The position numbers were made by a program, and so were the translations under genes. From Escherichia coli (GTDB lineage Bacteria; Pseudomonadota; Gammaproteobacteria; Enterobacterales; Enterobacteriaceae): 64,000 bases of DNA. The stretch lies in assembly GCF_030013595.1 (NCBI RefSeq), contig NZ_CP122768.1, one strand, 5' to 3'. Of the stretch, positions 12,037-29,232 are shown piece after piece (the stretch's first letter is position 1; each line of letters opens with the position of its first letter). Under the pieces are notes generated by a model. It did not search any database, had not been told where the DNA came from, and saw only the letters and a program-made list of their open reading frames with translations.

Positions 12037-13080
12037 ATGCGCTATCGCATTTTCCTTCTCTTTTTTTTCGCTTTGTTGCCGACGTCTTTGGTGTGGGCGG
12101 CACCAGCGCAACGGGCGTTTTCCGACTGGCAGGTCACCTGTAATAACCAAAACTTCTGCGTGGCGCGTAATACGGGCGATCATAACGGACTGGTGATGAC
12201 CCTGAGCCGCAGCGCCGGGGCGCATACGGATGCCGTTTTACGTATTGAGCGCGGCGGGTTGAAGTCGCCGGATGCGTCTGAAGGGGAGATAGCGCCACGG
12301 CTGCTGTTAGATGGCGAGCCGTTGGCGTTAAGTGGTGACAAGTGGCGGATTTCACCATGGTTATTAGTAACCGATGATACGGCAACCATCACCGCGTTTT
12401 TGCAGATGATTCAGGAAGGGAAGGCGATCACCTTACGCGACGGCAATCAGACCATTTCTCTGAGTGGCTTAAAAGCGGCGTTGTTGTTTATAGATGCTCA
12501 GCAAAAGCGCGTTGGCAGTGAAACCGCGTGGATAAAGAAAGGGGATGAACCGCCGCTCAGCGTACCGCCCGCGCCTGCGCTGAAAGAGGTCGCGGTGGTT
12601 AACCCAACGCCGACGCCACTCTCACTCGAAGAACGCAACGATTTGCTGGATTATGGAAACTGGCGGATGAATGGTCTGCGCTGCTCGCTTGATCCGTTAC
12701 GTCGTGAGGTGAATGTCACTGCGCTGACCGATGATAAAGCGCTGATGATGATTAGCTGTGAGGCAGGGGCCTATAACACCATTGATTTGGCATGGATTGT
12801 GTCGCGTAAAAAGCCACTGGCCTCGCGCCCGGTTCGGTTACGTTTGCCGTTCAACAGCGGTCAGGAGACGAATGAACTGGAACTGATGAACGCAACATTC
12901 GATGAAAAATCGCGTGAACTGGTGACCTTAGCAAAAGGGCGCGGATTAAGCGATTGTGGCATTCAGGCGCGCTGGCGCTTTGACGGTCAGCGTTTTCGCC
13001 TGGTGCGTTACGCCGCAGAACCCACCTGTGATAACTGGCATGGGCCAGACGCCTGGCCCACGTTATGGATCACCCGTTAA
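12037..13080 (+). CDS. ypfG: DUF1176 periplasmic protein YpfG (signal peptide)
   Basis: 347 aa; N-terminal signal sequence MRYRIFLLFFFALLPTSLVWA; conserved position next to tktB. Confidence 0.75.
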   Translation: MRYRIFLLFFFALLPTSLVWAAPAQRAFSDWQVTCNNQNFCVARNTGDHNGLVMTLSRSAGAHTDAVLRIERGGLKSPDASEGEIAPRLLLDGEPLALSGDKWRISPWLLVTDDTATITAFLQMIQEGKAITLRDGNQTISLSGLKAALLFIDAQQKRVGSETAWIKKGDEPPLSVPPAPALKEVAVVNPTPTPLSLEERNDLLDYGNWRMNGLRCSLDPLRREVNVTALTDDKALMMISCEAGAYNTIDLAWIVSRKKPLASRPVRLRLPFNSGQETNELELMNATFDEKSRELVTLAKGRGLSDCGIQARWRFDGQRFRLVRYAAEPTCDNWHGPDAWPTLWITR

Positions 13081-13112
13081 ACAAAATCCCAGATGCGCCC
13101 CTAAAAAGCGCA

Positions 13113-13160
13113 CGGACCGTCCCCTCGCCCCTCTGGGGAGAGGGTTAGGGTGAGGGGAAC
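13113..13160. repeat. GC-rich interspersed palindromic repeat (boxC-like), copy 1
   Basis: cggaccgtcccctcgcccctctggggagagggttagggtgaggggaac; a near-identical copy occurs at 27843-27891. Confidence 0.55.
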
Positions 13161-13182
13161 ATACAGCATCCGGCGATCACCA

Positions 13183-15186
13183 TCAGGCACCTTTCACTCC
13201 CAGCACCTTATGCGCTTTTGCCACAATATTCTCGGCGGTAAAGCCAAAGAACGGGAACAGCTTATCTGCCGGAGCAGATTCCCCATAGCCGGTCATCCCG
13301 ACAATTGCCCCTTTCAGACCAACATATTTGTACCAGTAATCGGCGATGCCTGCTTCCACCGCCACGCGAGCCGCAACGTTAGAAGGCAACACCGACTCGC
13401 GATATTCCTCATCCTGGGCGTCGAAAATATCGGTCGAGGGCAGGGAAACTACGCGTACATTGCGACCTTCTCCTGCTAATTTCTCTGCCGCTTGCAGGGT
13501 GATTTCCATCTCTGAACCGGTGGCAATCAGAATAATATCCGGCTTGCCGCCGCTGTCTTTCAGCACATAACCACCACGAGCAATCTCTTTAACCTGATCC
13601 GGCGTACGTTCCACCTGGGCCAGATTCTGCCTTGAGAGGATCAGTGCCGTCGGTCCGTTGTGGCGCTCAACGGCCAGCTTCCAGCCCACCGCTGCTTCCA
13701 CCTGATCGCACGGTCGCCAGGTGCTGAAATTTGGCGTTAAGCGCAGACTGGCCAGTTGCTCAACAGCCTGGTGCGTCGGACCATCTTCGCCCAGACCAAT
13801 TGAGTCGTGGGTATAAACCATAATCTGCCGCGCTTTCATCAGTGCCGCCATCCGCGCGGCGTTACGGGCGTATTCAACAAACATCAGGAACGTCGCGGTA
13901 TACGGCACAAAGCCGCCGTGGTGCGCAATGCCGTTGGCGATAGCGGTCATGCCAAATTCACGCACCCCGTAGTGAATGTAGTTGCCCGCCGGATCTTCCT
14001 TCAGCGACACAGAACCTTTCCAGATGGTGAGGTTGCTGGGAGCCAGATCCGCCGAACCGCCGAGCAACTCAGGAAGCAATGGCCCGTATGCGTTAAGCGT
14101 ATTTTGCGAAGCCTTACGGGTAGCGATTTTCGCCGGATTCGCCTGTAATTCATTGATATATTTCTGAGTCGTTTTCTCCCAGTCCTTCGGTAAACCACCG
14201 CTCATCCGACGGGTAAACTCTTCTGCCAGTTGCGGATGAGCCTTTTTATAGGCGGCAAACTTCTCATTCCAGCTCTGCTGCGCTTTTTCGCCTTTTTCGC
14301 GGGCATCCCAGGCGTGATAAATCTCTTTAGGGATCTCAAATGGCGGATGGTGCCAGCCCAGTTTTTGCCGTGCCAGCGCCACTTCTTCTTCCCCCAGTGG
14401 TGCGCCGTGCGCCTCTTCCTTACCTGCTTTATTCGGCGAACCAAAGCCAATCACCGTACGGCAGATAATGAGCGACGGCTTATCTTTCACGCTTTGCGCT
14501 TCAAGGAGCGCTTCCTTCACCGCCTGCGGATCGTGGCCGTCGATCTCGTGGATCACATGCCAGTGATAGGCTTCAAAACGTTTTGCTGTATCGTCGGTAA
14601 ACCAGCCTTCGGTTTCACCGTCGATGGAAATACCGTTATGATCGTAAAAACCAATCAGTTTGCCCAGCCCCAGCGTGCCCGCCAGCGAACAGACTTCGTG
14701 GGAAATACCTTCCATCAGGCAACCGTCGCCCATAAACACATAGGTGAAGTGATCGACAATTTCATGATCCGGCTGGTTAAACTGCGCCGCCAGTGTACGC
14801 TCTGCTATCGCCAGCCCGACGGCGTTCGCCAAACCTTGTCCAAGTGGACCGGTGGTGGTTTCAACACCTGGCGTATAACCAATCTCCGGGTGACCTGGGG
14901 TTTTTGAATGCAACTGACGGAAGTTCTTCAGCTCTTCCAGCGGCAGGTCGTAACCAGTTAGATGCAGCAAACTGTAGAGCAGCATCGACGCGTGACCGTT
15001 GGAAAGAATAAAGCGGTCGCGATCATACCAGGTTGGGTCGGTAGGGTTATGTTTAAGAAAATCGTTCCACAGCACTTCGGCAATATCAGCCATGCCCATC
15101 GGCGCGCCGGGATGACCAGAATTGGCTTTTTGTACCGCATCCATACTGAGTGCGCGAATCGCATTGGCAAGGTCTTTTCGGGACAT
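13183..15186 (-). CDS. tktB: Transketolase 2
   Basis: 667 aa from [33 protein letters not shown]...; ORF track extends 21 codons upstream to 15249. Directly downstream of talA. Confidence 0.9.
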
Positions 15187-15205
15187 ATAACACTCCGTGG
15201 CTGGT

Positions 15206-16156
15206 TTATAGTTTGGCGGCAAGAAGATCTTCCAGTTTGCGTTGATCAACGGCGAACAGACGAATGCCTTCAGACAGTTTTTCTACCGCCATCGCATCCT
15301 GATTGTGCTCCCAACGGAACTCCGCTTCGCTCATGGGAGCTGGGCGTGGGAACGTCTGAGAAGGTGGGATTAATTTACGTACCACTGGCGAAACTTTTTC
15401 CTGTAGCTCCTTCAGCAAATTCGGTGCGATAGTCAGTCGGTCGCAGCCGGTTAAGGCGAGGATTTGTTCGGTGCGACGGAAGCTCGCGCCCATCACAATG
15501 GTTTCATAGTGGTGTTGCTTATAGTAGTCGTAGATATTGCGTACTGATTTAACGCCCGGATCTTCTTCCACCACATACGGGTCCATCGGCTTGCGTGCCT
15601 GATACCAGTCATAAATACGCCCGACAAACGGCGAAATCAGAAAAACGCCTGCTTCTGCACAGGCCCGCGCCTGTGCAAAAGAAAACAGCAGCGTCAGGTT
15701 GCAGTTAATACCTTCTTTTTCCAGCTCTTCTGCCGCGCGAATTCCTTCCCAGGTTGAAGCCAGCTTGATCAAAATACGTGATTTCTCAACGCCTTGTTGC
15801 TGATACAAGTCCACCAGATGGCGCGCCTTCTCAATACTCTTTTCTTTATCAAAAGAGAGGCGTGCATCAACTTCTGTTGACACGCGACCGGGTACGATTT
15901 TGAGAATTTCAGCACCGAAATTGACCGCCAGTTTGTCACACGCTGCGACCACCTGTTGTTCCTGGGTCTTGCCATTTTTTTTACCCCAGGCGATAGCATC
16001 GTCTATTAAATGCTCATATTGTGATAATCCGGCAGCCTTGAGTAACAGCGAAGGATTGGTGGTGGCATCCTGGGGATGATAATGGCGAATGGACTCAATA
16101 TCGCCGCTGTCTGCCACGACAGTAGTGAACTGTTTGATGCCGTCTAACTCGTTCAT
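15206..16156 (-). CDS. talA: Transaldolase A
   Basis: 316 aa, [23 protein letters not shown]...; talA-tktB operon arrangement. Confidence 0.9.
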
Positions 16157-16444
16157 AGGAAATACTCCTTGAAAAGTAAAGTGTTAGATGAGTGCGTTAA
16201 TTCACACTTCTGAGAAATTTCGCTAAACGCATCAAAAAAGCATAGCAGACAGGCATGGTATTGCTGGATTAAGCAGGTAACATCAGTGTTATAGGATTAT
16301 TACCAAAACATTATATTAATGGTGAGAGTTTGGACTTGCTCAAAGTCTGTAGACTCCGGCAAGGTAATAATGTGCGCCACGTTGTGGGCAGGGGCTGTTG
16401 CCCACACACTTTATTTGTGAACGTTACGTGAAAGGAACAACCAA

Positions 16445-18724
16445 ATGGATGACCAGTTAAAACAAAGTGCACTTGATTTCCATGAATTTCCAGTTCCAGG
16501 GAAAATCCAGGTTTCTCCAACCAAGCCTCTGGCAACGCAGCGCGATCTGGCGCTGGCCTACTCACCAGGCGTTGCCGCACCTTGTCTTGAAATCGAAAAA
16601 GACCCGTTAAAAGCCTACAAATATACCGCGCGCGGTAACCTGGTGGCGGTGATCTCTAACGGTACGGCGGTGCTGGGGTTAGGCAACATTGGCGCGCTGG
16701 CAGGCAAACCGGTGATGGAAGGCAAGGGCGTTCTGTTTAAGAAATTCGCCGGGATTGATGTATTTGACATTGAAGTTGATGAACTCGACCCGGACAAATT
16801 TATTGAAGTCGTCGCCGCGCTCGAACCGACCTTCGGCGGCATCAACCTCGAAGACATTAAAGCGCCAGAATGTTTCTATATTGAACAGAAACTGCGCGAG
16901 CGAATGAATATTCCGGTATTCCACGACGATCAGCACGGCACGGCAATCATCAGCACTGCCGCCATCCTCAACGGTTTGCGCGTGGTGGAGAAAAACATCT
17001 CTGACGTGCGGATGGTGGTTTCCGGCGCGGGTGCCGCAGCAATCGCCTGTATGAACCTGCTGGTAGCGCTGGGTCTGCAAAAACATAACATCGTGGTTTG
17101 CGATTCAAAAGGCGTTATCTATCAGGGCCGTGAGCCAAACATGGCGGAAACCAAAGCCGCATATGCGGTGGTGGATGACGGCAAACGTACCCTCGATGAT
17201 GTGATTGAAGGCGCGGATATTTTCCTGGGATGTTCCGGCCCGAAAGTGCTGACCCAGGAAATGGTGAAGAAAATGGCCCGTGCGCCAATGATCCTGGCGC
17301 TGGCGAACCCGGAACCGGAAATTCTGCCGCCGCTGGCGAAAGAAGTGCGTCCGGATGCCATCATCTGTACCGGCCGTTCCGACTACCCGAACCAGGTGAA
17401 CAACGTTCTTTGCTTCCCGTTCATCTTCCGTGGCGCGCTGGACGTTGGCGCAACCGCCATCAACGAAGAGATGAAACTGGCGGCGGTACGCGCGATTGCA
17501 GAACTGGCCCATGCGGAACAGAGTGAAGTGGTGGCTTCAGCTTATGGCGATCAGGATCTGAGCTTTGGTCCGGAATACATCATTCCAAAACCGTTTGATC
17601 CGCGCTTGATCGTTAAGATCGCTCCTGCGGTCGCTAAAGCAGCGATGGAGTCCGGCGTGGCGACGCGTCCGATTGCTGATTTCGACGTCTACATCGACAA
17701 GCTGACGGAGTTCGTTTACAAAACCAACCTGTTTATGAAGCCGATTTTTTCCCAGGCTCGCAAAGCGCCGAAGCGCGTCGTTCTGCCGGAAGGTGAAGAG
17801 GCGCGCGTTCTGCATGCCACTCAGGAACTGGTAACGCTGGGGCTGGCGAAACCGATCCTTATCGGGCGTCCGAATGTGATCGAAATGCGCATTCAGAAAC
17901 TGGGCTTGCAGATCAAAGCGGGCGTTGATTTTGAGATCGTCAATAACGAATCCGATCCGCGCTTTAAAGAGTACTGGACCGAATACTTCCAGATCATGAA
18001 GCGTCGCGGTGTCACTCAGGAACAGGCGCAGCGTGCATTGATCAGTAACCCGACAGTGATCGGCGCAATCATGGTTCAGCGTGGCGAAGCCGATGCAATG
18101 ATCTGCGGTACGGTGGGCGATTATCATGAACATTTTAGCGTGGTGAAAAATGTCTTTGGTTATCGCGATGGCGTTCACACCGCAGGTGCCATGAACGCGC
18201 TGCTGCTGCCGAGTGGTAACACCTTTATTGCCGATACATACGTTAATGACGAACCAGACGCAGAAGAGCTGGCGGAGATCACCTTGATGGCGGCAGAAAC
18301 TGTCCGTCGTTTCGGTATTGAACCGCGCGTTGCTCTATTGTCGCACTCCAACTTTGGTTCTTCTGACTGCCCGTCTTCGAGCAAAATGCGTCAGGCGCTG
18401 GAACTGGTCAGGGAACGTGCACCAGAACTGATGATTGATGGTGAAATGCACGGCGATGCAGCGCTGGTGGAAGCGATTCGCAGCGACCGTATGCCGGACA
18501 GCCCTTTGAAAGGTTCCGCTAATATTCTGGTGATGCCGAACATGGAAGCTGCCCGCATTAGTTACAACTTATTGCGCGTTTCCAGCTCGGAAGGTGTGAC
18601 TGTCGGCCCGGTGCTGATGGGGGTGGCGAAACCGGTTCACGTGTTAACGCCGATCGCATCGGTACGTCGTATCGTCAACATGGTGGCGCTGGCTGTGGTT
18701 GAAGCGCAAACCCAACCGCTGTAA
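16445..18724 (+). CDS. maeB: NADP-dependent malic enzyme (malic enzyme domain plus PTA-like C-terminal domain)
   Basis: 759 aa, [44 protein letters not shown].... Confidence 0.93.
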
Positions 18725-18741
18725 TTCATTCTTAACTCTCA

Positions 18742-18776
18742 CGCTTACCCTGAATATTCAGGGTAAGCGGTTTTCC
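18742..18776 (+). terminator. Rho-independent terminator of maeB
   Basis: CGCTTACCCTGAatatTCAGGGTAAGCG followed by gTTTTcc. Confidence 0.75.
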
Positions 18777-19016
18777 TGAAATATATTAGTAAAGCTTATT
18801 ACTGAGTTTACGAATAATAAAAAAAGCAGTATATGAAATATCTCGATATTATTTTATTTATATTCATGCGTCGCATATGAAAGTTTATTCATAACAGTAA
18901 ATATCTCTCCATTCTTAGTGATCTACCTCACCTTTTAAACGCGCTTGCCGAATTTTGTTATTTACTCTGACGAAAAATTGTCACGATACACGAAAGTTTT
19001 TCACAGGCGGCGACTC

Positions 19017-19352
19017 ATGGATAAAGAACGCATCATTCAGGAATTTGTGCCCGGTAAACAGGTCACACTGGCGCATCTCATCGCGCATCCCGGCGAGGAA
19101 CTGGCGAAGAAAATCGGCGTTCCTGATGCGGGCGCAATCGGCATTATGACGCTAACTCCCGGCGAAACGGCGATGATCGCCGGTGATTTAGCACTAAAAG
19201 CCGCCGATGTGCATATCGGTTTTCTCGACCGTTTTAGCGGCGCGTTGGTGATTTATGGCTCGGTGGGTGCAGTAGAAGAAGCGTTATCACAAACCGTCAG
19301 CGGTTTAGGGCGTTTATTAAATTATACGCTTTGTGAAATGACCAAAAGTTAA
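19017..19352 (+). CDS. eutS: Bacterial microcompartment shell protein EutS
   Basis: 111 aa from [15 protein letters not shown]...; first gene of the eut operon. Confidence 0.85.
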
Positions 19353-19364
19353 TACGAGGCATTC

Positions 19365-19844
19365 ATGAAACGAATTGCGTTTGTGGGTACCGTCGGGGCA
19401 GGAAAAACAACGTTATTTAATGCGTTGCAGGGAGATTATACCCTCGCCAGAAAAACGCAGGCCGTAGAATTTAATGATAAGGGTGATATTGATACGCCGG
19501 GTGAATATTTTAGCCATCCCCGCTGGTATCACGCCTTAATTACCACGCTACAGGATGTGGACATGCTGATCTATGTCCACGGCGCGAATGACCCGGAAAG
19601 TCGGTTGCCTGCCGGGTTGCTGGATATTGGCGTCAGCAAACGGCAAATCGCCGTCATCAGTAAAACGGACATGCCAGATGCTGACGTCGCCGCAACGCGA
19701 AAGTTATTGCTTGAGACGGGCTTCGAAGAGCCGATTTTCGAGCTAAACAGCTACGACCCGCAAAGCGTGCAGCAACTGGTGGATTATCTGGCATCTCTCA
19801 CCAAACAGGAGGAAGCAGGTGAAAAAACTCATCACAGCGAATGA
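19365..19844 (+). CDS. eutP: Ethanolamine utilisation GTPase/kinase-like protein EutP
   Basis: 159 aa, P-loop GTVGAGKTTLF. Confidence 0.85.
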   Translation: MKRIAFVGTVGAGKTTLFNALQGDYTLARKTQAVEFNDKGDIDTPGEYFSHPRWYHALITTLQDVDMLIYVHGANDPESRLPAGLLDIGVSKRQIAVISKTDMPDADVAATRKLLLETGFEEPIFELNSYDPQSVQQLVDYLASLTKQEEAGEKTHHSE

Positions 19845-20520
19845 TATTCGTGAAGCACACGCGCGCGGCGAACAGGCAATGTCCGTGGTTCTGCGCGCCA
19901 GCATTATTACCCCGGAAGCCCGTGAAGTGGCAGATCTACTGGGTTTTACCATCACTGAATGTGATGAATCGACCCCGGTAACGGCGTCCGTTCCCGCCTG
20001 CGTGCCAGCCGATAAAACCGAAAGCCAGCGTATCCGCGAAACCATCATCGCCCAGCTACCGGAAGGCCAGTTTACCGAAAGCCTGGTCGCGCAGCTGATG
20101 GAAAAAGTGATGAAGGAAAAACAGTCACTGGAGCAGGGTGCAATGCAGCCGAGTTTCAAATCGGTTACCGGCAAAGGCGGCATCAAAGTGATTGATGGCA
20201 GCAGCGTCAAGTTTGGTCGTTTTGACGGCGCACAGCCACACTGCGTCGGATTAACGGATCTGGTCACCGGAGACGACGGCAGCAGCATGGCCGCTGGTTT
20301 TATGCAGTGGGAGAACGCCTTCTTCCCGTGGACCCTGAACTATGACGAAATCGACATGGTACTGGAAGGGGAACTGCACGTTCGCCACGAAGGCGAAACC
20401 ATGATCGCCAAAGCAGGCGACGTGATGTTTATCCCGAAAGGCTCCAGCATCGAATTTGGTACGACATCCAGCGTGAAATTCCTGTATGTCGCCTGGCCGG
20501 CTAACTGGCAATCCCTATGA
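19819..20520 (+). CDS. eutQ: Cupin-domain protein EutQ
   Basis: 233 aa; overlaps eutP by 26 bp. Confidence 0.85.
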   Translation: MKKLITANDIREAHARGEQAMSVVLRASIITPEAREVADLLGFTITECDESTPVTASVPACVPADKTESQRIRETIIAQLPEGQFTESLVAQLMEKVMKEKQSLEQGAMQPSFKSVTGKGGIKVIDGSSVKFGRFDGAQPHCVGLTDLVTGDDGSSMAAGFMQWENAFFPWTLNYDEIDMVLEGELHVRHEGETMIAKAGDVMFIPKGSSIEFGTTSSVKFLYVAWPANWQSL

Positions 20521-21320
20521 AAGATTTCATCACCGAAGCATGGCTAAGAGCGAACCATACGCTCAGCGAAGGCGCAGAGATCCATCTCCCTGCGGACAGT
20601 CGCCTGACGCCCTCTGCCCGGGAGCTACTGGAAAGCCGCCATCTGCGCATCAAGTTTATTGACGAGCAGGGCCGCCTGTTTGTTGACGATGAACAGCAGC
20701 AGCCGCAGCCCGTTCACGGGCTGACCAGTAGCGATGAACATCCGCAGGCGTGCTGCGAACTGTGCCGCCAGCCGGTGGCAAAAAAGCCGGACACTCTGAC
20801 TCACCTGTCGGCGGAAAAAATGGTCGCCAAAAGCGATCCGCGCCTCGGTTTTCGCGCGGTTCTCGACAGCACCATTGCGCTGGCAGTGTGGCTGCAAATT
20901 GAACTGGCAGAACCGTGGCAGCCGTGGCTGGCGGACATCCGCTCGCGTCTTGGCAATATTATGCGTGCCGATGCGCTGGGGGAACCGCTGGCCTGCCAGG
21001 CGATTGTCGGGCTTTCTGACGAAGATCTGCATCGGCTTTCTCACCAGCCGCTGCGCTATCTTGGTCACGATCATCTGGTGCCGGAAGCCAGCCACGGGCG
21101 CGATGCGGCGTTACTCAATCTGCTACGCACCAAAGTGCGGGAAACCGAAACCGTAGCGGCGCAGGTATTTATCACCCGCAGCTTTGAAGTATTACGCCCG
21201 GACATCTTGCAGGCGCTGAACCGCCTTTCCAGCACGGTCTACGTGATGATGATCCTGAGCGTAGCGAAACAACCGCTAACGGTGAAGCAGATCCAACAAC
21301 GACTGGGGGAAACGCAATGA
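20517..21320 (+). CDS. eutT: Cob(I)alamin adenosyltransferase EutT
   Basis: 267 aa; ATGA start/stop overlap with eutQ; operon position. Confidence 0.85.
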
Positions 21321-22333
21321 TTATTGAACGTTGTCGTGAACTGGCGTTGCGAGCGCCCGCCAGAGTGGTTTTTCCGGATGCGTTAGATCAACGTGTGCTG
21401 AAAGCCGCGCAATATTTACATCAACAAGGTCTGGCAACGCCCATTCTGGTCGCCAGCCCGTTTGAACTTCGTCAGTTTGCGCTCAGTCATGGCGTGGCGA
21501 TGGACGGGGTTCAGGTTATTGATCCACAGAGCAATCTTGCTATGCGGGAAGCGTTTGCGCAGCGTTGGTTGGCCCGTGCGGGCGAAAAAACGCCGCCGGA
21601 TGCGCTGGAAAAACTCACCGATCCGCTGATGTTCGCTGCCGCAATGGTCAGCGCCGGGATAGCGGATGTCTGTATCGCGGGCAATCTCTCTTCCACGGCG
21701 AATGTGCTGCGTGCCGGATTACGCATTATTGGCTTACAGCCAGGCTGTAAAACGCTCTCCTCCATTTTCCTGATGCTGCCACAGTACAGTGGCCCCGCAT
21801 TGGGCTTTGCCGATTGCAGCGTAGTGCCACAGCCGACGGCGGCGCAACTGGCGGATATCGCGCTTGCCAGCGCCGAAACCTGGCGCGCCATCACCGGAGA
21901 AGAACCGCGCGTGGCGATGTTGTCGTTTTCCAGTAACGGCAGCGCCCGTCACCCCTGCGTTGCCAACGTCCAGCAGGCGACAGAAATCGTCCGTGAGCGC
22001 GCGCCGCAGTTGGTAGTCGATGGCGAGTTGCAGTTTGACGCCGCCTTCGTGCCGGAAGTGGCGGCGCAAAAAGCGCCTGCCAGCCCGCTACAAGGCAAGG
22101 CCAATGTGATGGTTTTTCCGTCGCTGGAAGCCGGAAATATTGGCTACAAAATCGCACAACGACTCGGCGGATATCGTGCCGTCGGGCCATTGATACAAGG
22201 GCTTGCCGCGCCGATGCACGATCTCTCTCGTGGTTGTAGCGTGCAGGAAATTATCGAGCTGGCGCTGGTGGCAGCTGTGCCGCGTCAGACAGAAGTGAAC
22301 CGCGAAAGCAGTTTACAAACACTGGTTGAATGA
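21317..22333 (+). CDS. eutD: Phosphotransacetylase EutD (EutI)
   Basis: 338 aa, PTA-family motifs. Confidence 0.88.
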
Positions 22334-22371
22334 ACGGTCCCGTTCTGGACCCTGATAAAGAGGAAAGCACA

Positions 22372-22665
22372 ATGGAAGCATTAGGAATGATCGAAACCCG
22401 GGGCCTGGTTGCACTGATTGAGGCTTCTGACGCGATGGTGAAAGCTGCGCGCGTCAAGCTGGTTGGTGTTAAGCAGATTGGCGGCGGCCTGTGTACTGCC
22501 ATGGTTCGTGGTGATGTTGCAGCCTGTAAAGCCGCGACCGACGCAGGTGCTGCAGCGGCACAGCGTATCGGCGAGCTGGTATCTGTACACGTTATCCCGC
22601 GTCCGCACGGCGACCTGGAAGAAGTCTTCCCGATCGGCCTGAAAGGCGATAGCAGCAACCTGTAA
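22372..22665 (+). CDS. eutM: Major BMC-H shell protein EutM
   Basis: 97 aa from [28 protein letters not shown]...; ORF track extends 14 codons upstream to 22330. Confidence 0.9.
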
Positions 22666-22771
22666 TCACCCTGTGTGACGTCGATTCGGGCGTCACGCTC
22701 TCTCCTTTTTCAGTTTACCTTCCGCGGAGGGTAGGGGGAGCTTTTACCTGAAATACGCCACGGAGGCGGGT

Positions 22772-23059
22772 ATGAAACTGGCAGTCGTCACTGGACAAAT
22801 TGTTTGTACCGTACGCCATCACGGACTGGCGCATGACAAATTGCTGATGGTGGAAATGATTGATCCACAAGGTAATCCTGACGGGCAATGCGCCGTCGCC
22901 ATCGACAATATTGGCGCGGGAACCGGGGAGTGGGTGTTACTGGTGAGTGGCAGTTCCGCCCGCCAGGCGCATAAAAGCGAAACGTCACCGGTCGATCTGT
23001 GCGTGATTGGCATCGTCGATGAGGTGGTGTCTGGCGGTCAGGTAATTTTCCACAAATAA
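22772..23059 (+). CDS. eutN: BMC vertex (pentamer) protein EutN
   Basis: 95 aa, MKLAVVTGQIVCTVRHHGL.... Confidence 0.88.
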   Translation: MKLAVVTGQIVCTVRHHGLAHDKLLMVEMIDPQGNPDGQCAVAIDNIGAGTGEWVLLVSGSSARQAHKSETSPVDLCVIGIVDEVVSGGQVIFHK

Positions 23060-23070
23060 GGCAGAACATC

Positions 23071-24474
23071 ATGAATCAACAGGATATTGAACAGGTGGTG
23101 AAAGCGGTACTGCTGAAAATGCAAAGCAGTGACACGCCGCCCGCCGCCCTTCATGAGATGGGTGTTTTCGCGTCCCTGGATGACGCCGTTGCGGCAGCCA
23201 AAGTCGCCCAGCAAGGGTTAAAAAGCGTGGCAATGCGCCAGTTAGCCATTGCTGCCATTCGTGAGGCAGGCGAAAAACACGCCAGAGATTTAGCGGAACT
23301 TGCCGTCAGTGAAACCGGCATGGGGCGCGTCGAAGATAAATTTGCCAAAAACGTCGCTCAGGCGCGCGGCACACCAGGCGTTGAGTGCCTCTCTCCGCAA
23401 GTGCTGACGGGCGACAACGGCCTGACTTTAATTGAAAACGCGCCCTGGGGCGTGGTGGCTTCGGTGACGCCTTCCACTAACCCGGCGGCAACCGTAATTA
23501 ACAACGCCATCAGCCTGATTGCCGCGGGCAACAGCGTCATTTTTGCCCCGCATCCGGCGGCGAAAAAAGTCTCCCAGCGGGCGATTACGCTGCTCAACCA
23601 GGCGATTGTTGCCGCAGGCGGGCCGGAAAACTTACTGGTTACTGTGGTCAATCCGGATATCGAAACCGCGCAACGTTTGTTCAAGTTTCCGGGTATCGGC
23701 CTTTTGGTGGTGACCGGCGGCGAAGCGGTAGTGGAAGCGGCGCGTAAACACACCAATAAACGTCTGATTGCCGCGGGCGCTGGCAACCCACCGGTAGTGG
23801 TGGATGAAACCGCCGACCTCGCCCGTGCCGCTCAGTCCATCGTCAAAGGCGCTTCTTTCGATAACAACATCATTTGTGCCGACGAAAAGGTACTGATTGT
23901 TGTTGATAGCGTAGCCGATGAACTGATGCGTCTGATGGAAGGCCAGCACGCGGTGAAACTGACCGCAGAGCAGGCGCAGCAGCTGGAACCGGTGTTGCTG
24001 AAAAATATCGACGAGCGCGGAAAAGGCACCGTCAGCCGTGACTGGGTTGGTCGCGATGCGGCGAAAATCGCGGCGGCAATCGGCCTTAAAGTTCCGGAAC
24101 AAACGCGACTGCTGTTTGTAGAAACCACCGCAGAACATCCGTTTGCCGTGACCGAACTGATGATGCCGGTGCTGCCCGTCGTGCGTGTCGCCAACGTGGC
24201 GGATGCCATTGCGCTGGCGGTGAAACTGGAAGGCGGTTGCCACCACACGGCGGCAATGCACTCGCGCAACATCGAGAACATGAACCAGATGGCGAACGCC
24301 ATTGATACCAGCATCTTCGTTAAGAACGGACCGTGCATTGCCGGGCTGGGGCTGGGCGGGGAAGGCTGGACCACCATGACCATCACCACGCCAACCGGTG
24401 AAGGGGTAACCAGCGCGCGTACGTTTGTCCGTCTGCGTCGCTGTGTATTAGTCGATGCGTTTCGCATTGTTTAA
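23071..24474 (+). CDS. eutE: CoA-acylating acetaldehyde dehydrogenase EutE
   Basis: 467 aa aldehyde-dehydrogenase family. Confidence 0.9.
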   Translation: MNQQDIEQVVKAVLLKMQSSDTPPAALHEMGVFASLDDAVAAAKVAQQGLKSVAMRQLAIAAIREAGEKHARDLAELAVSETGMGRVEDKFAKNVAQARGTPGVECLSPQVLTGDNGLTLIENAPWGVVASVTPSTNPAATVINNAISLIAAGNSVIFAPHPAAKKVSQRAITLLNQAIVAAGGPENLLVTVVNPDIETAQRLFKFPGIGLLVVTGGEAVVEAARKHTNKRLIAAGAGNPPVVVDETADLARAAQSIVKGASFDNNIICADEKVLIVVDSVADELMRLMEGQHAVKLTAEQAQQLEPVLLKNIDERGKGTVSRDWVGRDAAKIAAAIGLKVPEQTRLLFVETTAEHPFAVTELMMPVLPVVRVANVADAIALAVKLEGGCHHTAAMHSRNIENMNQMANAIDTSIFVKNGPCIAGLGLGGEGWTTMTITTPTGEGVTSARTFVRLRRCVLVDAFRIV

Positions 24475-24484
24475 GGAGTAACAG

Positions 24485-24910
24485 ATGGCGCACGACGAAC
24501 AATGGCTCACCCCGCGTCTGCAAACGGCGGCAACGCTGTGTAACCAGACGCCTGCCGCAACGGAATCTCCGCTGTGGCTGGGGGGGGATCTGGGCACCTG
24601 CGATGTGGTGTCGATGGTTGTCGACCGCGACGGTCAGCCGGTGGCGGTATGCCTCGACTGGGCCGATGTGGTCCGCGACGGCATCGTCTGGGATTTCTTC
24701 GGTGCGGTCACCATTGTTCGTCGCCATCTCGACACCCTCGAGCAGCAATTCGGTCGCCGTTTTAGCCATGCGGCGACCTCATTTCCTCCAGGTACGGACC
24801 CGCGTATTTCCATCAACGTGCTGGAATCTGCCGGGCTGGAAGTGAGCCATGTGCTGGATGAGCCAACCGCAGTCGCGGATCTGCTGCAACTGGACAACGC
24901 AGGCGTAGTG
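24485..24910 (+). pseudogene. eutJ: eutJ 5' fragment (codons 1-142), interrupted by IS10
   Basis: The reading frame runs straight into the IS10 outside end at 24911; 24485..24910 plus 26249..26659 gives 278 codons with a continuous ...NAGVV|DIGGGTTGIAIV... junction. Confidence 0.85.
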
Positions 24911-24956
24911 CTGATGAATCCCCTAATGATTTTGGTAAAAATCATTAAGTTAAGGT

Positions 24957-25025
24957 GGATACACATCTTGTCATATGATCAAATGGTTTCGCGAAAAATC
25001 AATAATCAGACAACAAGATGTGCGA
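24957..25025 (-). ncRNA. Predicted IS10 antisense RNA-OUT (pOUT transcript), placed by position within IS10
   Basis: Coordinates inferred from the known IS10 layout (transposase start at IS nt 108, matching the ATG at 25018); not independently verified. Confidence 0.4.
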
Positions 25026-26226
25026 ACTCGATATTTTACACGACTCTCTTTACCAATTCTGCCCCGAATTACACTTAAAACGACTCAACAGCTTAACGTT
25101 GGCTTGCCACGCATTACTTGACTGTAAAACTCTCACTCTTACCGAACTTGGCCGTAACCTGCCAACCAAAGCGAGAACAAAACATAACATCAAACGAATC
25201 GACCGATTGTTAGGTAATCGTCACCTCCACAAAGAGCGACTCGCTGTATACCGTTGGCATGCTAGCTTTATCTGTTCGGGCAATACGATGCCCATTGTAC
25301 TTGTTGACTGGTCTGATATTCGTGAGCAAAAACGACTTATGGTATTGCGAGCTTCAGTCGCACTACACGGTCGTTCTGTTACTCTTTATGAGAAAGCGTT
25401 CCCGCTTTCAGAGCAATGTTCAAAGAAAGCTCATGACCAATTTCTAGCCGACCTTGCGAGCATTCTACCGAGTAACACCACACCGCTCATTGTCAGTGAT
25501 GCTGGCTTTAAAGTGCCATGGTATAAATCCGTTGAGAAGCTGGGTTGGTACTGGTTAAGTCGAGTAAGAGGAAAAGTACAATATGCAGACCTAGGAGCGG
25601 AAAACTGGAAACCTATCAGCAACTTACATGATATGTCATCTAGTCACTCAAAGACTTTAGGCTATAAGAGGCTGACTAAAAGCAATCCAATCTCATGCCA
25701 AATTCTATTGTATAAATCTCGCTCTAAAGGCCGAAAAAATCAGCGCTCGACACGGACTCATTGTCACCACCCGTCACCTAAAATCTACTCAGCGTCGGCA
25801 AAGGAGCCATGGGTTCTAGCAACTAACTTACCTGTTGAAATTCGAACACCCAAACAACTTGTTAATATCTATTCGAAGCGAATGCAGATTGAAGAAACCT
25901 TCCGAGACTTGAAAAGTCCTGCCTACGGACTAGGCCTACGCCATAGCCGAACGAGCAGCTCAGAGCGTTTTGATATCATGCTGCTAATCGCCCTGATGCT
26001 TCAACTAACATGTTGGCTTGCGGGCGTTCATGCTCAGAAACAAGGTTGGGACAAGCACTTCCAGGCTAACACAGTCAGAAATCGAAACGTACTCTCAACA
26101 GTTCGCTTAGGCATGGAAGTTTTGCGGCATTCTGGCTACACAATAACAAGGGAAGACTTACTCGTGGCTGCAACCCTACTAGCTCAAAATTTATTCACAC
26201 ATGGTTACGCTTTGGGGAAATTATGA
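25018..26226 (+). CDS. IS10 transposase
   Basis: 402 aa, MCELDILHDSLYQFCPELHLKRLNSL...HGYALGKL; identical at protein level to the copy at 31470..32678. Confidence 0.93.
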   Translation: MCELDILHDSLYQFCPELHLKRLNSLTLACHALLDCKTLTLTELGRNLPTKARTKHNIKRIDRLLGNRHLHKERLAVYRWHASFICSGNTMPIVLVDWSDIREQKRLMVLRASVALHGRSVTLYEKAFPLSEQCSKKAHDQFLADLASILPSNTTPLIVSDAGFKVPWYKSVEKLGWYWLSRVRGKVQYADLGAENWKPISNLHDMSSSHSKTLGYKRLTKSNPISCQILLYKSRSKGRKNQRSTRTHCHHPSPKIYSASAKEPWVLATNLPVEIRTPKQLVNIYSKRMQIEETFRDLKSPAYGLGLRHSRTSSSERFDIMLLIALMLQLTCWLAGVHAQKQGWDKHFQANTVRNRNVLSTVRLGMEVLRHSGYTITREDLLVAATLLAQNLFTHGYALGKL

Positions 26227-26239
26227 GGGGATCTCTCAG

Positions 26240-26659
26240 GGCGTAGTGGATATCGGCGGCGGCACTACCGGCATTGCCATCGTGAAAAAGGGCAAGGTGA
26301 CGTACTCGGCGGATGAAGCCACTGGCGGACATCACATCTCTCTGACTCTCGCCGGAAATCGCCGTATTTCGCTGGAAGAGGCGGAGCAGTACAAGCGCGG
26401 TCACGGTGAAGAGATTTGGCCTGCGGTGAAACCGGTGTACGAAAAAATGGCGGACATTGTCGCCCGGCATATTGAAGGGCAGGGCATTACTGATTTATGG
26501 CTGGCGGGCGGCTCCTGTATGCAACCGGGCGTGGCGGAACTGTTTTGCAAACAATTCCCGGCGTTACAGGTGCATCTACCGCAGCACAGTTTGTTTATGA
26601 CCCCGCTGGCGATCGCCAGTAGCGGGCGAGAGAAAGCGGAGGGGATCTATGCAAAATGA
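26240..26659 (+). pseudogene. eutJ: eutJ 3' fragment (starts with the duplicated 9 bp)
   Basis: In frame with the 5' fragment after removing the IS and one TSD copy; Hsp70/actin-like ATPase motif DIGGGTT. Confidence 0.85.
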
Positions 26660-27836
26660 ATTGCAGACCGCGCTCTTTCAGGCGTTCGATACCCTGAATC
26701 TGCAACGGGTAAAAACATTTAGCGTTCCACCAGTGACGCTTTGCGGTCCGGGCGCGATGAGCAGTTGCGGGCAGCAAGCGCAAACGCGTGGGCTGAAACA
26801 TCTGTTCGTGATGGCAGACAGCTTTTTGCATCAGGCGGGGATGACCGCCGGGCTGACGCGTAGCCTGGCCGTTAAAGGTATCGCCATGACGCTCTGGCCA
26901 TGTCCGGTGGGCGAACCGTGCATCACCGACGTGTGTGCAGCCGTGGCGCAGTTGCGTGAATCGGGTTGCGATGGGGTGATCGCGTTTGGCGGCGGCTCGG
27001 TGCTGGATGCAGCAAAAGCCGTGGCGTTGCTGGTGACGAACCCGGATAGCACGCTGGCAGAGATGTCAGAAACCAGCGTTCTGCAACCGCGCCTGCCGTT
27101 GATTGCCATTCCAACTACCGCCGGAACCGGTTCTGAAACCACCAACGTAACGGTGATTATCGACGCGGTGAGCGGGCGCAAGCAGGTGTTAGCCCACGCC
27201 TCGCTGATGCCGGATGTGGCGATTCTCGACGCTACGCTGACCGAAGGCGTGCCGTCGCATGTCACGGCGATGACCGGTATCGACGCGTTAACCCATGCTA
27301 TTGAAGCGTACAGCGCGCTGAACGCTACACCGTTTACCGACAGCCTGGCGATTGGCGCAATCGCGATGATTGGTAAATCACTGCCGAAAGCGGTGGGCTA
27401 CGGTCATGACCTTGCCGCGCGCGAGAGCATGTTGCTGGCTTCATGCATGGCGGGAATGGCGTTTTCCAGTGCGGGGCTTGGGTTATGCCACGCGATGGCG
27501 CATCAGCCAGGGGCGGCGCTGCATATTCCGCACGGTCTGGCGAACGCTATGTTGCTGCCAACGGTGATGGAATTTAACCGGATGGTTTGTCGTGATCGGT
27601 TTAGCTTGGTTGGTCGGGCGCTGCGAACTAAAAAATCCGACGATCGTGACGCTATTAACGCGGTAAGTGAGCTGATTGCGGAAGTCGGGATTGGTAAACG
27701 ACTGGGCGATATTGGTGCGACATCTGCGCATTACGGCGCATGGGCGCAGGCCGCGCTGGAAGATATTTGTCTGCGCAGCAACCCGCGTACCGCCAGCCTG
27801 GAGCAGATTGTCGGCCTGTACGCAGCGGCGCAATAA
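26649..27836 (+). CDS. eutG: Iron-containing alcohol dehydrogenase EutG
   Basis: 395 aa, Fe-ADH family. Confidence 0.88.
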   Translation: MQNELQTALFQAFDTLNLQRVKTFSVPPVTLCGPGAMSSCGQQAQTRGLKHLFVMADSFLHQAGMTAGLTRSLAVKGIAMTLWPCPVGEPCITDVCAAVAQLRESGCDGVIAFGGGSVLDAAKAVALLVTNPDSTLAEMSETSVLQPRLPLIAIPTTAGTGSETTNVTVIIDAVSGRKQVLAHASLMPDVAILDATLTEGVPSHVTAMTGIDALTHAIEAYSALNATPFTDSLAIGAIAMIGKSLPKAVGYGHDLAARESMLLASCMAGMAFSSAGLGLCHAMAHQPGAALHIPHGLANAMLLPTVMEFNRMVCRDRFSLVGRALRTKKSDDRDAINAVSELIAEVGIGKRLGDIGATSAHYGAWAQAALEDICLRSNPRTASLEQIVGLYAAAQ

Positions 27837-27842
27837 AAGTGT

Positions 27843-27940
27843 ACGGACAGTCCCCTCGCCCCTTTGGGGAGAGGGTTAGGGTGAGGGGAACAGAGTCGCG
27901 CCGGTGCAAACAATTACCCTCACCCCGGCCCCTCGGCTTC
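27843..27940. repeat. GC-rich interspersed palindromic repeat (boxC-like), copy 2, with an extra inverted arm
   Basis: acggacagtcccctcgcccctttggggagagggttagggtgaggggaac, then ttaccctcaccccggcccctcggc, which is partly complementary to it. Confidence 0.55.
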
Positions 27941-28005
27941 CAGAGTGAGGGAAAAACCCACTTTCAGCATTGGCAATAAATAACAACTAACAGGGAGTAA
28001 AGGCG

Positions 28006-29232
28006 ATGGGAATTAACGAAATCATCATGTACATCATGATGTTCTTTATGCTGATAGCTGCCGTAGACAGGATCCTGTCGCAGTTCGGCGGTTCTGCTCG
28101 TTTCCTCGGTAAGTTCGGTAAAAGTATCGAAGGATCCGGCGGGCAGTTTGAAGAAGGCTTTATGGCGATGGGCGCACTGGGCCTGGCGATGGTTGGTATG
28201 ACCGCGCTGGCACCTGTTCTGGCCCACGTACTCGGACCGGTGATTATCCCGGTTTACGAAATGCTCGGTGCAAACCCGTCAATGTTCGCCGGAACACTGC
28301 TGGCGTGCGATATGGGCGGGTTCTTCCTCGCCAAAGAGCTGGCGGGCGGCGACGTAGCAGCGTGGCTATACTCTGGGTTAATTCTCGGGTCGATGATGGG
28401 GCCAACGATTGTGTTTTCCATTCCGGTGGCGCTCGGCATTATCGAACCTTCTGACCGTCGTTATCTGGCGCTCGGCGTGCTGGCGGGCATTGTGACCATT
28501 CCGATTGGCTGTATTGCTGGTGGTCTGGTTGCTATGTACTCCGGTGTGCAGATCAACGGTCAGCCGGTGGAATTCACCTTTGCGCTGATCCTGATGAACA
28601 TGATCCCGGTACTTATCGTTGCGGTGCTGGTGGCGCTGGGGCTGAAATTCATCCCGGAAAAAATGATCAACGGCTTCCAGATCTTCGCCAAATTCCTCGT
28701 TGCATTGATCACCCTCGGTCTTGCTGCCGCGGTAGTGAAATTCCTCCTTGGCTGGGAACTGATCCCGGGCCTTGATCCTATCTTTATGGCCCCTGGCGAC
28801 AAACCCGGTGAAGTGATGCGCGCCATTGAAGTTATCGGTTCTATCTCCTGCGTTCTGTTAGGGGCGTATCCGATGGTGCTGCTGCTGACCCGCTGGTTTG
28901 AAAAACCGCTGATGAGCGTCGGTAAAGTGCTGAATATGAACAACATCGCGGCAGCCGGCATGGTGGCAACGCTTGCCAACAACATCCCGATGTTCGGCAT
29001 GATGAAGCAGATGGATACCCGCGGCAAAGTCATCAACTGCGCCTTCGCCGTTTCCGCTGCTTTCGCCCTGGGCGACCACTTAGGCTTCGCCGCTGCCAAC
29101 ATGAACGCCATGATTTTCCCGATGATTGTCGGCAAATTGATCGGCGGCGTAACGGCGATTGGCGTGGCGATGATGCTGGTGCCAAAAGAAGACGCGACCG
29201 CGGCTAAAACCGAAGCGGAGGCACAATCGTGA
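28006..29232 (+). CDS. eutH: Ethanolamine permease EutH
   Basis: 408 aa polytopic membrane protein. Confidence 0.88.
   Translation: MGINEIIMYIMMFFMLIAAVDRILSQFGGSARFLGKFGKSIEGSGGQFEEGFMAMGALGLAMVGMTALAPVLAHVLGPVIIPVYEMLGANPSMFAGTLLACDMGGFFLAKELAGGDVAAWLYSGLILGSMMGPTIVFSIPVALGIIEPSDRRYLALGVLAGIVTIPIGCIAGGLVAMYSGVQINGQPVEFTFALILMNMIPVLIVAVLVALGLKFIPEKMINGFQIFAKFLVALITLGLAAAVVKFLLGWELIPGLDPIFMAPGDKPGEVMRAIEVIGSISCVLLGAYPMVLLLTRWFEKPLMSVGKVLNMNNIAAAGMVATLANNIPMFGMMKQMDTRGKVINCAFAVSAAFALGDHLGFAAANMNAMIFPMIVGKLIGGVTAIGVAMMLVPKEDATAAKTEAEAQS

Follow-up and report, generated by a model that had tools for sequence, protein, structure and literature searches.

By sequence, two G+C-rich palindromic sites in the window, the 64,000-nucleotide stretch of Escherichia coli DNA analysed here, are copies of BoxC, a dispersed E. 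coli intergenic repeat that also goes by the names PIT and TMECO. The initial annotation of this DNA had called the repeat 'boxC-like' and had placed one copy in the eutG–eutH spacer and the other between ypfG and tktB; the name is borne out by exact matches to the TMECO pattern and by membership of a dispersed family, and the gene context is as described. Considering the evidence as a whole, we regard it as highly probable that both sites are BoxC, that the composite element in the eut spacer is a derived minority allele occupying a BIME slot, and that it is a passenger repeat without a eut-specific role.

The TMECO motif is the element that was named BoxC in the 1990s and re-described later as PIT (Holder et al. 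2015, PMC4666352). Its types are distinguished by the second loop, which is TTA in type A and CCG in type B (PMC4666352). We found that the strict pattern, CCCTCNCCC-N3-6-GGGNGAGGG-N3-GGGNGAGGG, was matched exactly at 13122-13156 and at 27853-27887, and that it was not matched once across 100 dinucleotide-preserving shuffles. Both copies are intergenic, lying between open reading frames. Features shared with BoxC/PIT/TMECO are the exact defining pattern, the type A (TTA) loop, the intergenic position, a length of about 50 bp and a G+C-rich composition, together with multi-copy, chromosomal occurrence, the A + B inverted pair and polymorphism of the locus between strains. A genome-wide search for the motif had been suggested in the initial annotation. 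Using a 60-nt query taken from the eut copy, we detected BoxC in 5,425 of 5,426 complete E. coli genomes, with a median of 18 and a maximum of 31 places per genome; 90,271 places were chromosomal and 52 were on plasmids. The family is dispersed, and a median of 18 places per genome excludes a motif unique to the two sites in the window, an outcome that would have spoken against a repeat family. The idea that the two blocks arose by chance or by local duplication, outside any repeat family, has a negligible probability and was rejected, as no point was found in its support and it is contradicted by the shuffles, by the roughly 90,000 family places across 5,425 genomes and by the annotation of the BoxC family since the 1990s.

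Holder et al. listed 63 TMECO loci, with 23 copies in MG1655; they reported many 'mutated TMECO' loci with degenerate copies, and they described five inverted pairs, every one of which combines an A with a B unit (PMC4666352). The K-12 GenBank record contains 33 annotated BoxC features of 51-59 bp (PMC5172473). Because K-12 carries REP sequence at both of the loci studied here, the copies in the window are not among the 23 TMECO or 33 BoxC copies of K-12; a further departure from the BoxC/PIT/TMECO description is the degenerate middle block in the B arm of the eut pair. The names eutG, eutH, tktB and ypfG do not occur in the portion of the PMC4666352 text available to us, and BoxC is not mentioned in the Delihas 2011 review. 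An E-value scan of 12500-28500 against Rfam placed no family at either BoxC locus. Its only true match was the RNA-OUT of an IS10 element, and the lone hit overlapping one of the repeats (Antizyme_FSE at 13106-13161, 22 bits against a gathering score of 40) was below threshold and is ascribed to chance.

The two copies in the window are closely similar. Compared in register on the + strand, 13113-13160 and 27844-27891 are identical at 46 of 48 positions, the 2 differences being C/A in GGACnG and C/T in the first loop. The twice-occurring block of about 48 bp with few differences that had been described earlier thus stands, with its start at eut shifted by one nucleotide from 27843 to 27844. 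The similarity runs beyond this block on the left (AAAAGyGyACGGAC) and on the right (AACAnA..GC..CCGG).

The site between ypfG and tktB reads as a single type A unit. According to the open reading frame calls and the RefSeq annotation of a 100%-identical genome, ypfG (12037-13080, + strand) converges on tktB (− strand, from 13183). The type A core between them, CCCTCGCCC-CTCTG-GGGAGAGGG-TTA-GGGTGAGGG (13122..13156, + strand), is an exact match to the pattern and is identical to the core in Nissle 1917. Alignment with K-12 delimited an allele-specific segment (13088..13163, + strand) composed of an extended BoxC left end (CAGATGCG..AAAAAGCGCACGGACCG), the core and AACATA, in place of which K-12 has REP sequence. 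The left extension is common to the gcvP, sstT and fepB copies. We found this BoxC allele in 830 of the 5,426 genomes, Nissle 1917 among them. In Nissle 1917 and similar genomes, the ypfG–tktB element (13088-13163) is the sole family member that megablast finds, and a single TMECO was reported by Holder et al. for the B2 strain IHE3034 (PMC4666352). The ypfG–tktB copy may be that single TMECO of IHE3034, and it is possibly the oldest BoxC copy. We also considered whether the BoxC hairpin might serve as a terminator for the convergent ypfG and tktB genes, and this was unsupported, there being no U-run on either strand.

The eut site holds a standard composite in which a linker joins a type A unit to an inverted and, in this copy, degenerate type B unit. 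By the same gene calls and annotation, eutG (26649-27836, + strand) is followed by a 169-nt spacer and then by eutH (28006-29232, + strand). The type A core (27853..27887, + strand) matches the pattern exactly, has TTA as its loop 2 and is G-rich in the sense of the eut mRNA. The linker GAACAGAGTCGCGCCGGTGCAAACAATTA (27888..27916, + strand) can be aligned with its counterparts in the BoxC pairs at cca–bacA, gcvP–ygfF and sstT–alx, and in the predicted hairpin it makes up the apical loop. The type B arm (27917..27951, − strand), with the reverse complement CCCTCACTC-TGGAA-GCCGAGGGG-CCG-GGGTGAGGG, aligns with intact B arms elsewhere. No strict TMECO match was found on the − strand at eut, because the B unit has a degenerate middle block, with GCCGAGGGG in place of GGGAGAGGG; its CCG loop and its position on the opposite strand agree with the rule that A pairs with B. 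The initial annotation had noted an additional, partly complementary arm at 27913-27936. This arm is real, and the first unit offers its G-rich half as the pairing partner in the predicted RNA fold; the extent of the arm is corrected here to 27917-27951, the span of the degenerate second BoxC unit.

The whole composite, including both arms, the linker and the end sequences, occupies 27838..27972 (+ strand) between two CAATAAA copies, as judged by alignment with three other composites. These composites of about 136 bp are located at cca–bacA, gcvP–ygfF and sstT–alx, and the eut sequence aligns with them end to end in the order left end AAAAGTGyACGGACAG, A unit, linker AACAG..GCACCGGTGCGAACAATTA, inverted B unit and right end ..GCTCA.CATTG. 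The gcvP–ygfF and sstT–alx pairs have the A + B layout too, with strict matches in both arms. The left flanking direct repeat GCAATAAA (27830..27837, + strand) consists of the last eutG codon CAA, the stop codon TAA and a further A. The right flanking direct repeat GCAATAAA (27973..27980, + strand) begins the portion of the spacer, extending to eutH, that is common to BIME alleles. It is followed by the ancestral short spacer (27981..28005, + strand), which contains the eutH Shine-Dalgarno sequence AGGGAG (27992-27997) outside the repeat and is present in all alleles.

Among five family copies with strongly diverged flanks and linkers, the A unit (TCCCCTCGCCCC..GGGGAACA) varies in loop 1 only, and the eut element is identical in three genomes whose eutG/eutH flanks differ at 3-9 sites. 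This invariance of the A unit and of the eut element points to constraint or gene conversion and would count against a freely drifting passenger. Part of the eut linker, AGTCGCGCCGGTGCAA (27894-27909), shares 14 of 16 positions with the K-12 inter-BIME linker AGTGGCG-CGGTGCAA, a closer resemblance than is seen for the linkers of other BoxC pairs. This likeness could reflect a hybrid origin or chance. In the strain GPEC1337, six substitutions are bunched in the last 27 nt of eutG (corresponding to 27810-27824 of the window), adjoining an otherwise identical BoxC; this cluster may mark a recombination breakpoint.

To place the eut allele among its alternatives, we compared eutG–eutH spacers across genomes. 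The BoxC allele was present in 383 of the 5,426 complete E. coli genomes (~7%). In K-12, BL21 and most strains, the spacer holds BIME units that repeat every 100 bp, so that it measures 116, 216, 316 or 516 nt, and an O157-type strain has a 99-nt remnant. In an even sample of 39 E. coli genomes, BoxC was present in 3 and the 99-bp form in 2, while one, two, three and about five BIME units occurred in 15, 12, 5 and 2 genomes, respectively; a synthetic empty-site query identified an empty slot in none of the 39. We also surveyed fifty eutG–eutH loci from other species, recovered through EutH. All other Escherichia examined have BIME in the spacer (116-578 nt), Citrobacter, Klebsiella, Salmonella and Pseudocitrobacter have REP types of their own, and only a 27-45 nt spacer is found in some Citrobacter, Yokenella, Pluralibacter, Buttiauxella, Hafnia and Morganella. 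None of the fifty loci had BoxC in this spacer. Since the outgroups carry BIME, their own REPs or a short spacer and never BoxC, the BoxC allele is derived within E. coli. The BIME array is itself minisatellite-like, with 1-5 units per spacer in E. coli and as many as about six (578 nt) in one genome of another Escherichia.

The BoxC and BIME inserts both start directly after TAA-A and end just before CAATAAATAAC. With these common boundaries, both are bounded by the direct repeat CAATAAA (GCAATAAA in the window), and the Citrobacter empty site has a single copy of the repeat (GCACAA TAA ATACAC..). These alignments indicate that the eut BoxC pair sits in exactly the slot that holds tandem BIME units in other Escherichia. 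The REP consensus palindrome (GCCGGATGCG..CGCATCCGGC type, often alternating, with a period of ~100 bp) is absent from the window spacers. BoxC and REP/BIME have in common the slot in eutG–eutH, their occurrence as alternative alleles at ypfG–tktB and cca–bacA, a G+C-rich palindromic sequence, transcription within operons and predicted stable RNA hairpins. They differ in that BoxC is unlike the REP consensus apart from the 14/16 linker match, has a three-block triplex architecture and does not form tandem ~100-bp arrays. We know of no association of BoxC with RAYT.

Variation was not confined to the two loci in the window, and six out of six BoxC loci compared are polymorphic. In addition to eutG–eutH and ypfG–tktB, cca–bacA holds a BoxC pair that is replaced by three REPs in K-12 and by one REP in strain H105. 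At sstT–alx, the alternatives to the BoxC pair are a collapsed simple hairpin (ST131) and an unrelated 400-bp insert (another strain). BoxC is present at fepB–entC in about half of genomes, the alternative being a clean 186-bp absence with TAA at both junctions. The alternative to the BoxC pair at gcvP–ygfF is a larger regional difference, which is uninformative. In ST131, the hairpin that replaces the A + B pair (216-538 of the sstT–alx locus) has the form CCCCTCGCCCC-TTTT-GGGGAGAGGGAG, which is consistent with deletion of the sequence between two GGGAGAGGG direct repeats; such a repeat-to-repeat collapse is the 'palindrome effect' of Holder et al. (PMC4666352). The unrelated insert, found in place of the BoxC pair in some strains and located in strain XD35 at ~300-800 of the locus, is very G+C-rich, measures ~400 bp and contains GGGGGCGGCCAATCGCCGCCGCCCCC palindromes.

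In single-stranded DNA, the A unit may form a purine-motif intrastrand triplex from its G-rich strand, which would fit the local instability and allele turnover at BoxC loci. An explanation that we regard as tenable but doubtful takes this as the main action of the element: the triplex would provoke replication stalling or repair and leave the spacer especially prone to deletion, replacement and recombination, with no role in expression. The three blocks, one C-rich and two mirror-symmetric and G-rich, fit the class II triplex motif exactly, and TMECO consensus oligonucleotides formed an intrastrand triplex in vitro as judged by CD and NMR (PMC4666352). The triplex went undetected in vivo by DMS footprinting, however, and PIT elements caused no replication block in vivo (PMC4666352). 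TMECO loci vary more between strains than control intergenic regions (PMC4666352), in keeping with the polymorphism of all six loci described above, including the ST131 collapse between GGGAGAGGG repeats. The BIME alleles of eutG–eutH are nevertheless at least as variable (1-5 units in E. coli), so the variability of this spacer need not come from BoxC, and the eut BoxC allele was invariant in the three genomes compared. Covariation between the variable positions of blocks 1 and 2 in viral contigs (T-A in 94 motifs and C-G in 4) also favours action at the DNA level.

The strict TMECO pattern was found in at least 120 IMG/VR viral or prophage contigs (G+C ~0.49-0.73; 123 distinct sequences), which may hold host DNA; the motif has been stated in the literature not to be phage-associated. 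Like H-DNA and quadruplex-prone sequences, BoxC has mirror-repeat purine blocks, and its G-rich half, GGGGAGAGGGTTAGGGTGAGGGG, fits the G3+N1-7 quadruplex rule. For the DNA oligonucleotide, however, NMR revealed a triplex and not a quadruplex (PMC4666352). Purine-motif triplexes do not form in RNA (PMC4666352), and the form adopted in the mRNA would therefore be a hairpin. The sequence GGGGAGAGGGUUAGGGUGAGGGG is a candidate RNA quadruplex.

Considering the preferred reading at the RNA level, the eut element would fold as a long imperfect hairpin in the polycistronic mRNA. RNA folding of the eut sense strand (27834-27965) predicted one such hairpin of −53.6 kcal/mol, with a z-score of −2.2 that is modest for a sequence so G+C-rich (3 of 200 shuffles were as stable), in agreement with the larger stem-loop that had been suggested earlier for the eut transcript. 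The predicted fold brings the G-rich half of A together with B's C-rich strand, and the TTA and CGG loops are opposed as U-G, U-G and A-C. The A unit alone gave −23.7 kcal/mol as RNA, and the RNA of the one-unit BIME allele gave −45.2 kcal/mol, with a similarly modest z-score of −2.7. With DNA parameters, the eut element formed local hairpins only, totalling −25.2 kcal/mol. Promoter and terminator scans revealed no promoter-like or terminator-like site at either BoxC element. The eut hairpin is followed by GAAAAACCCAC with no U-run, so it lacks the form of an intrinsic (Rho-independent) terminator, and it would not terminate transcription.

Published work bears on the same point. A follow-up study by Maher, as summarised in PMC4666352, detected neither promoter nor terminator activity in PIT elements and saw no effect of them on RNA polymerase. 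In K-12 W3110, whose eutG–eutH spacer contains BIME, EutG is less abundant than EutB and EutC, which are encoded downstream (PMC11334477), so strong structure at this position does not block downstream expression. We found no literature specifically on transcripts of the eutG–eutH spacer. It is well established that hairpins formed by REPs act as barriers to 3′ exonucleases, and a REP located within about 15 nt of a stop codon can reduce expression of the gene that precedes it. The BoxC hairpin, like the REP hairpins it replaced, may slow 3′-to-5′ exonucleases and modestly shift the stability of upstream relative to downstream mRNA. The effect on stability or processing of the eut mRNA that had been suggested earlier is at most plausible, and we infer that the element is a passenger with no eut-specific role.

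We think it unlikely that the eut element is instead a selected cis-acting RNA structure, which would act as a 3′ exonuclease shield for the eutS–eutG message or as a processing site and set the upstream/downstream ratio of the operon, with BoxC and BIME being interchangeable. This explanation draws on the observation that both alleles put strong structure in one slot and that no slot was empty among the 39 sampled E. coli genomes. A palindromic repeat of some kind is found in the spacer of most Enterobacteriaceae, and structured repeats have come to occupy it independently in Escherichia, Citrobacter, Klebsiella, Salmonella and Pseudocitrobacter; this repeated filling could reflect selection for structure at this point of the mRNA and not mere tolerance. 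Several of the short spacers also keep a small GCCTG..CAGGC hairpin (5-6 bp GC), which is common to Buttiauxella, Morganella and Pluralibacter gergoviae, but these hairpins are singly non-significant against shuffles, and the spacers of Citrobacter (27 nt) and Hafnia are nearly structureless (MFE −0.2 and −1.9 kcal/mol, respectively). On these grounds, we rejected the proposal that a hairpin is universally required between eutG and eutH. Selection on the RNA is further opposed by the published tests of PIT elements described above, by the lack of bias of BoxC elements in orientation or operon position (PMC4666352) and by the disruption that IS10 has already caused to the operon of the window, in eutJ.

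REP was the alternative allele at three of the five informative BoxC loci (eutG–eutH, ypfG–tktB and cca–bacA). REPs are estimated to occupy roughly 10-25% of suitable K-12 intergenic regions, and against this background three of five is suggestive only. The stronger statement that REP always alternates with BoxC was rejected because sstT–alx has a collapsed hairpin or a 400-bp insert and fepB–entC shows presence or absence. We treat as quite improbable the proposal that BoxC composites and REP/BIMEs are interchangeable occupants of common slots, with BoxC having precisely replaced BIME at eut, which would imply a directed mechanism or selection. If this proposal were true, either BoxC would be templated into REP-bearing sites, through microhomology (for example, the linker-like sequence) or a REP-targeting activity, or selection would keep stable RNA structure after certain stop codons, whichever repeat family supplies it.

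It is likewise improbable, in our assessment, that the composite is a non-autonomous MITE-like mobile element that generates a short target duplication and possibly prefers REP/BIME sites. The inverted-repeat architecture and conserved ends of the composite would suit such an element, as would the REP/BIME alternatives at three of five loci and the clean 186-bp presence/absence at fepB–entC. The 8-bp direct repeat GCAATAAA flanks the eut element as a target duplication might, but CAATAAA also flanks the BIME alleles, so that the duplication predates BoxC at eut. Flanking repeats are inconsistent in length, with 8 bp at eut, TAA at fepB–entC, where an empty allele exists, and none obvious or of consistent length at other loci. 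At eut, the left end has been truncated or has fused with the stop region of eutG, a configuration better explained by microhomology-mediated recombination. There is no associated transposase, plasmid copies are very rare (52 against 90,271 on chromosomes) and copies are ~12-14% diverged outside the core, which excludes a recent burst. ERIC/IRU and other MITE-like enterobacterial repeats resemble BoxC in being inverted-repeat composites of ~130 bp that lie inside transcripts and show presence/absence polymorphism, whereas BoxC has no sequence relation to them.

Finally, we examined the state of the eut operon in the window. An IS10-type element (24911-26239; 1,329 bp) interrupts eutJ (24485..26659). 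It contains a 402-aa transposase open reading frame (25018-26226) and RNA-OUT (24956-25025, − strand; 98.8 bits, Rfam), and it is flanked by a 9-bp target duplication, GGCGTAGTG, at 24902-24910 and 26240-26248. Downstream of the insertion, the eutG start codon follows at a distance of 0.4 kb and the eutG–eutH spacer at 1.6 kb. A search of the 5,426 complete E. coli genomes did not find its eutJ junction in any of them. In the window strain, transcription that reaches eutG and eutH from the eut promoter is probably subject to polarity, regardless of the spacer. In strain HCP5S3_I2 (pig, UK), the closest genome around the spacer, eutE is annotated as a pseudogene with an internal stop. The IS10 interruption upstream, the nature of the eut element as an A + B inverted pair and its status as a minority allele replacing the BIME array of most E. 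coli are three points that the initial annotation had left out.

The repeat family was described between 1992 and 2015, and the A + B composite arrangement is already known (Holder 2015). What is new is modest, local and evolutionary, namely that the eut slot is shared with BIME; the history of the eut insert is mildly interesting, and the element is otherwise an ordinary member of the BoxC family. As a known repeat family has been correctly identified, little changes, and the useful residue is evolutionary. The eutG–eutH spacer provides a natural experiment, in which an ancestral spacer of 25-27 nt has been filled by BIME arrays, filled by a BoxC pair (~7% of E. coli) or left empty (some Citrobacter), within a measurable operon.
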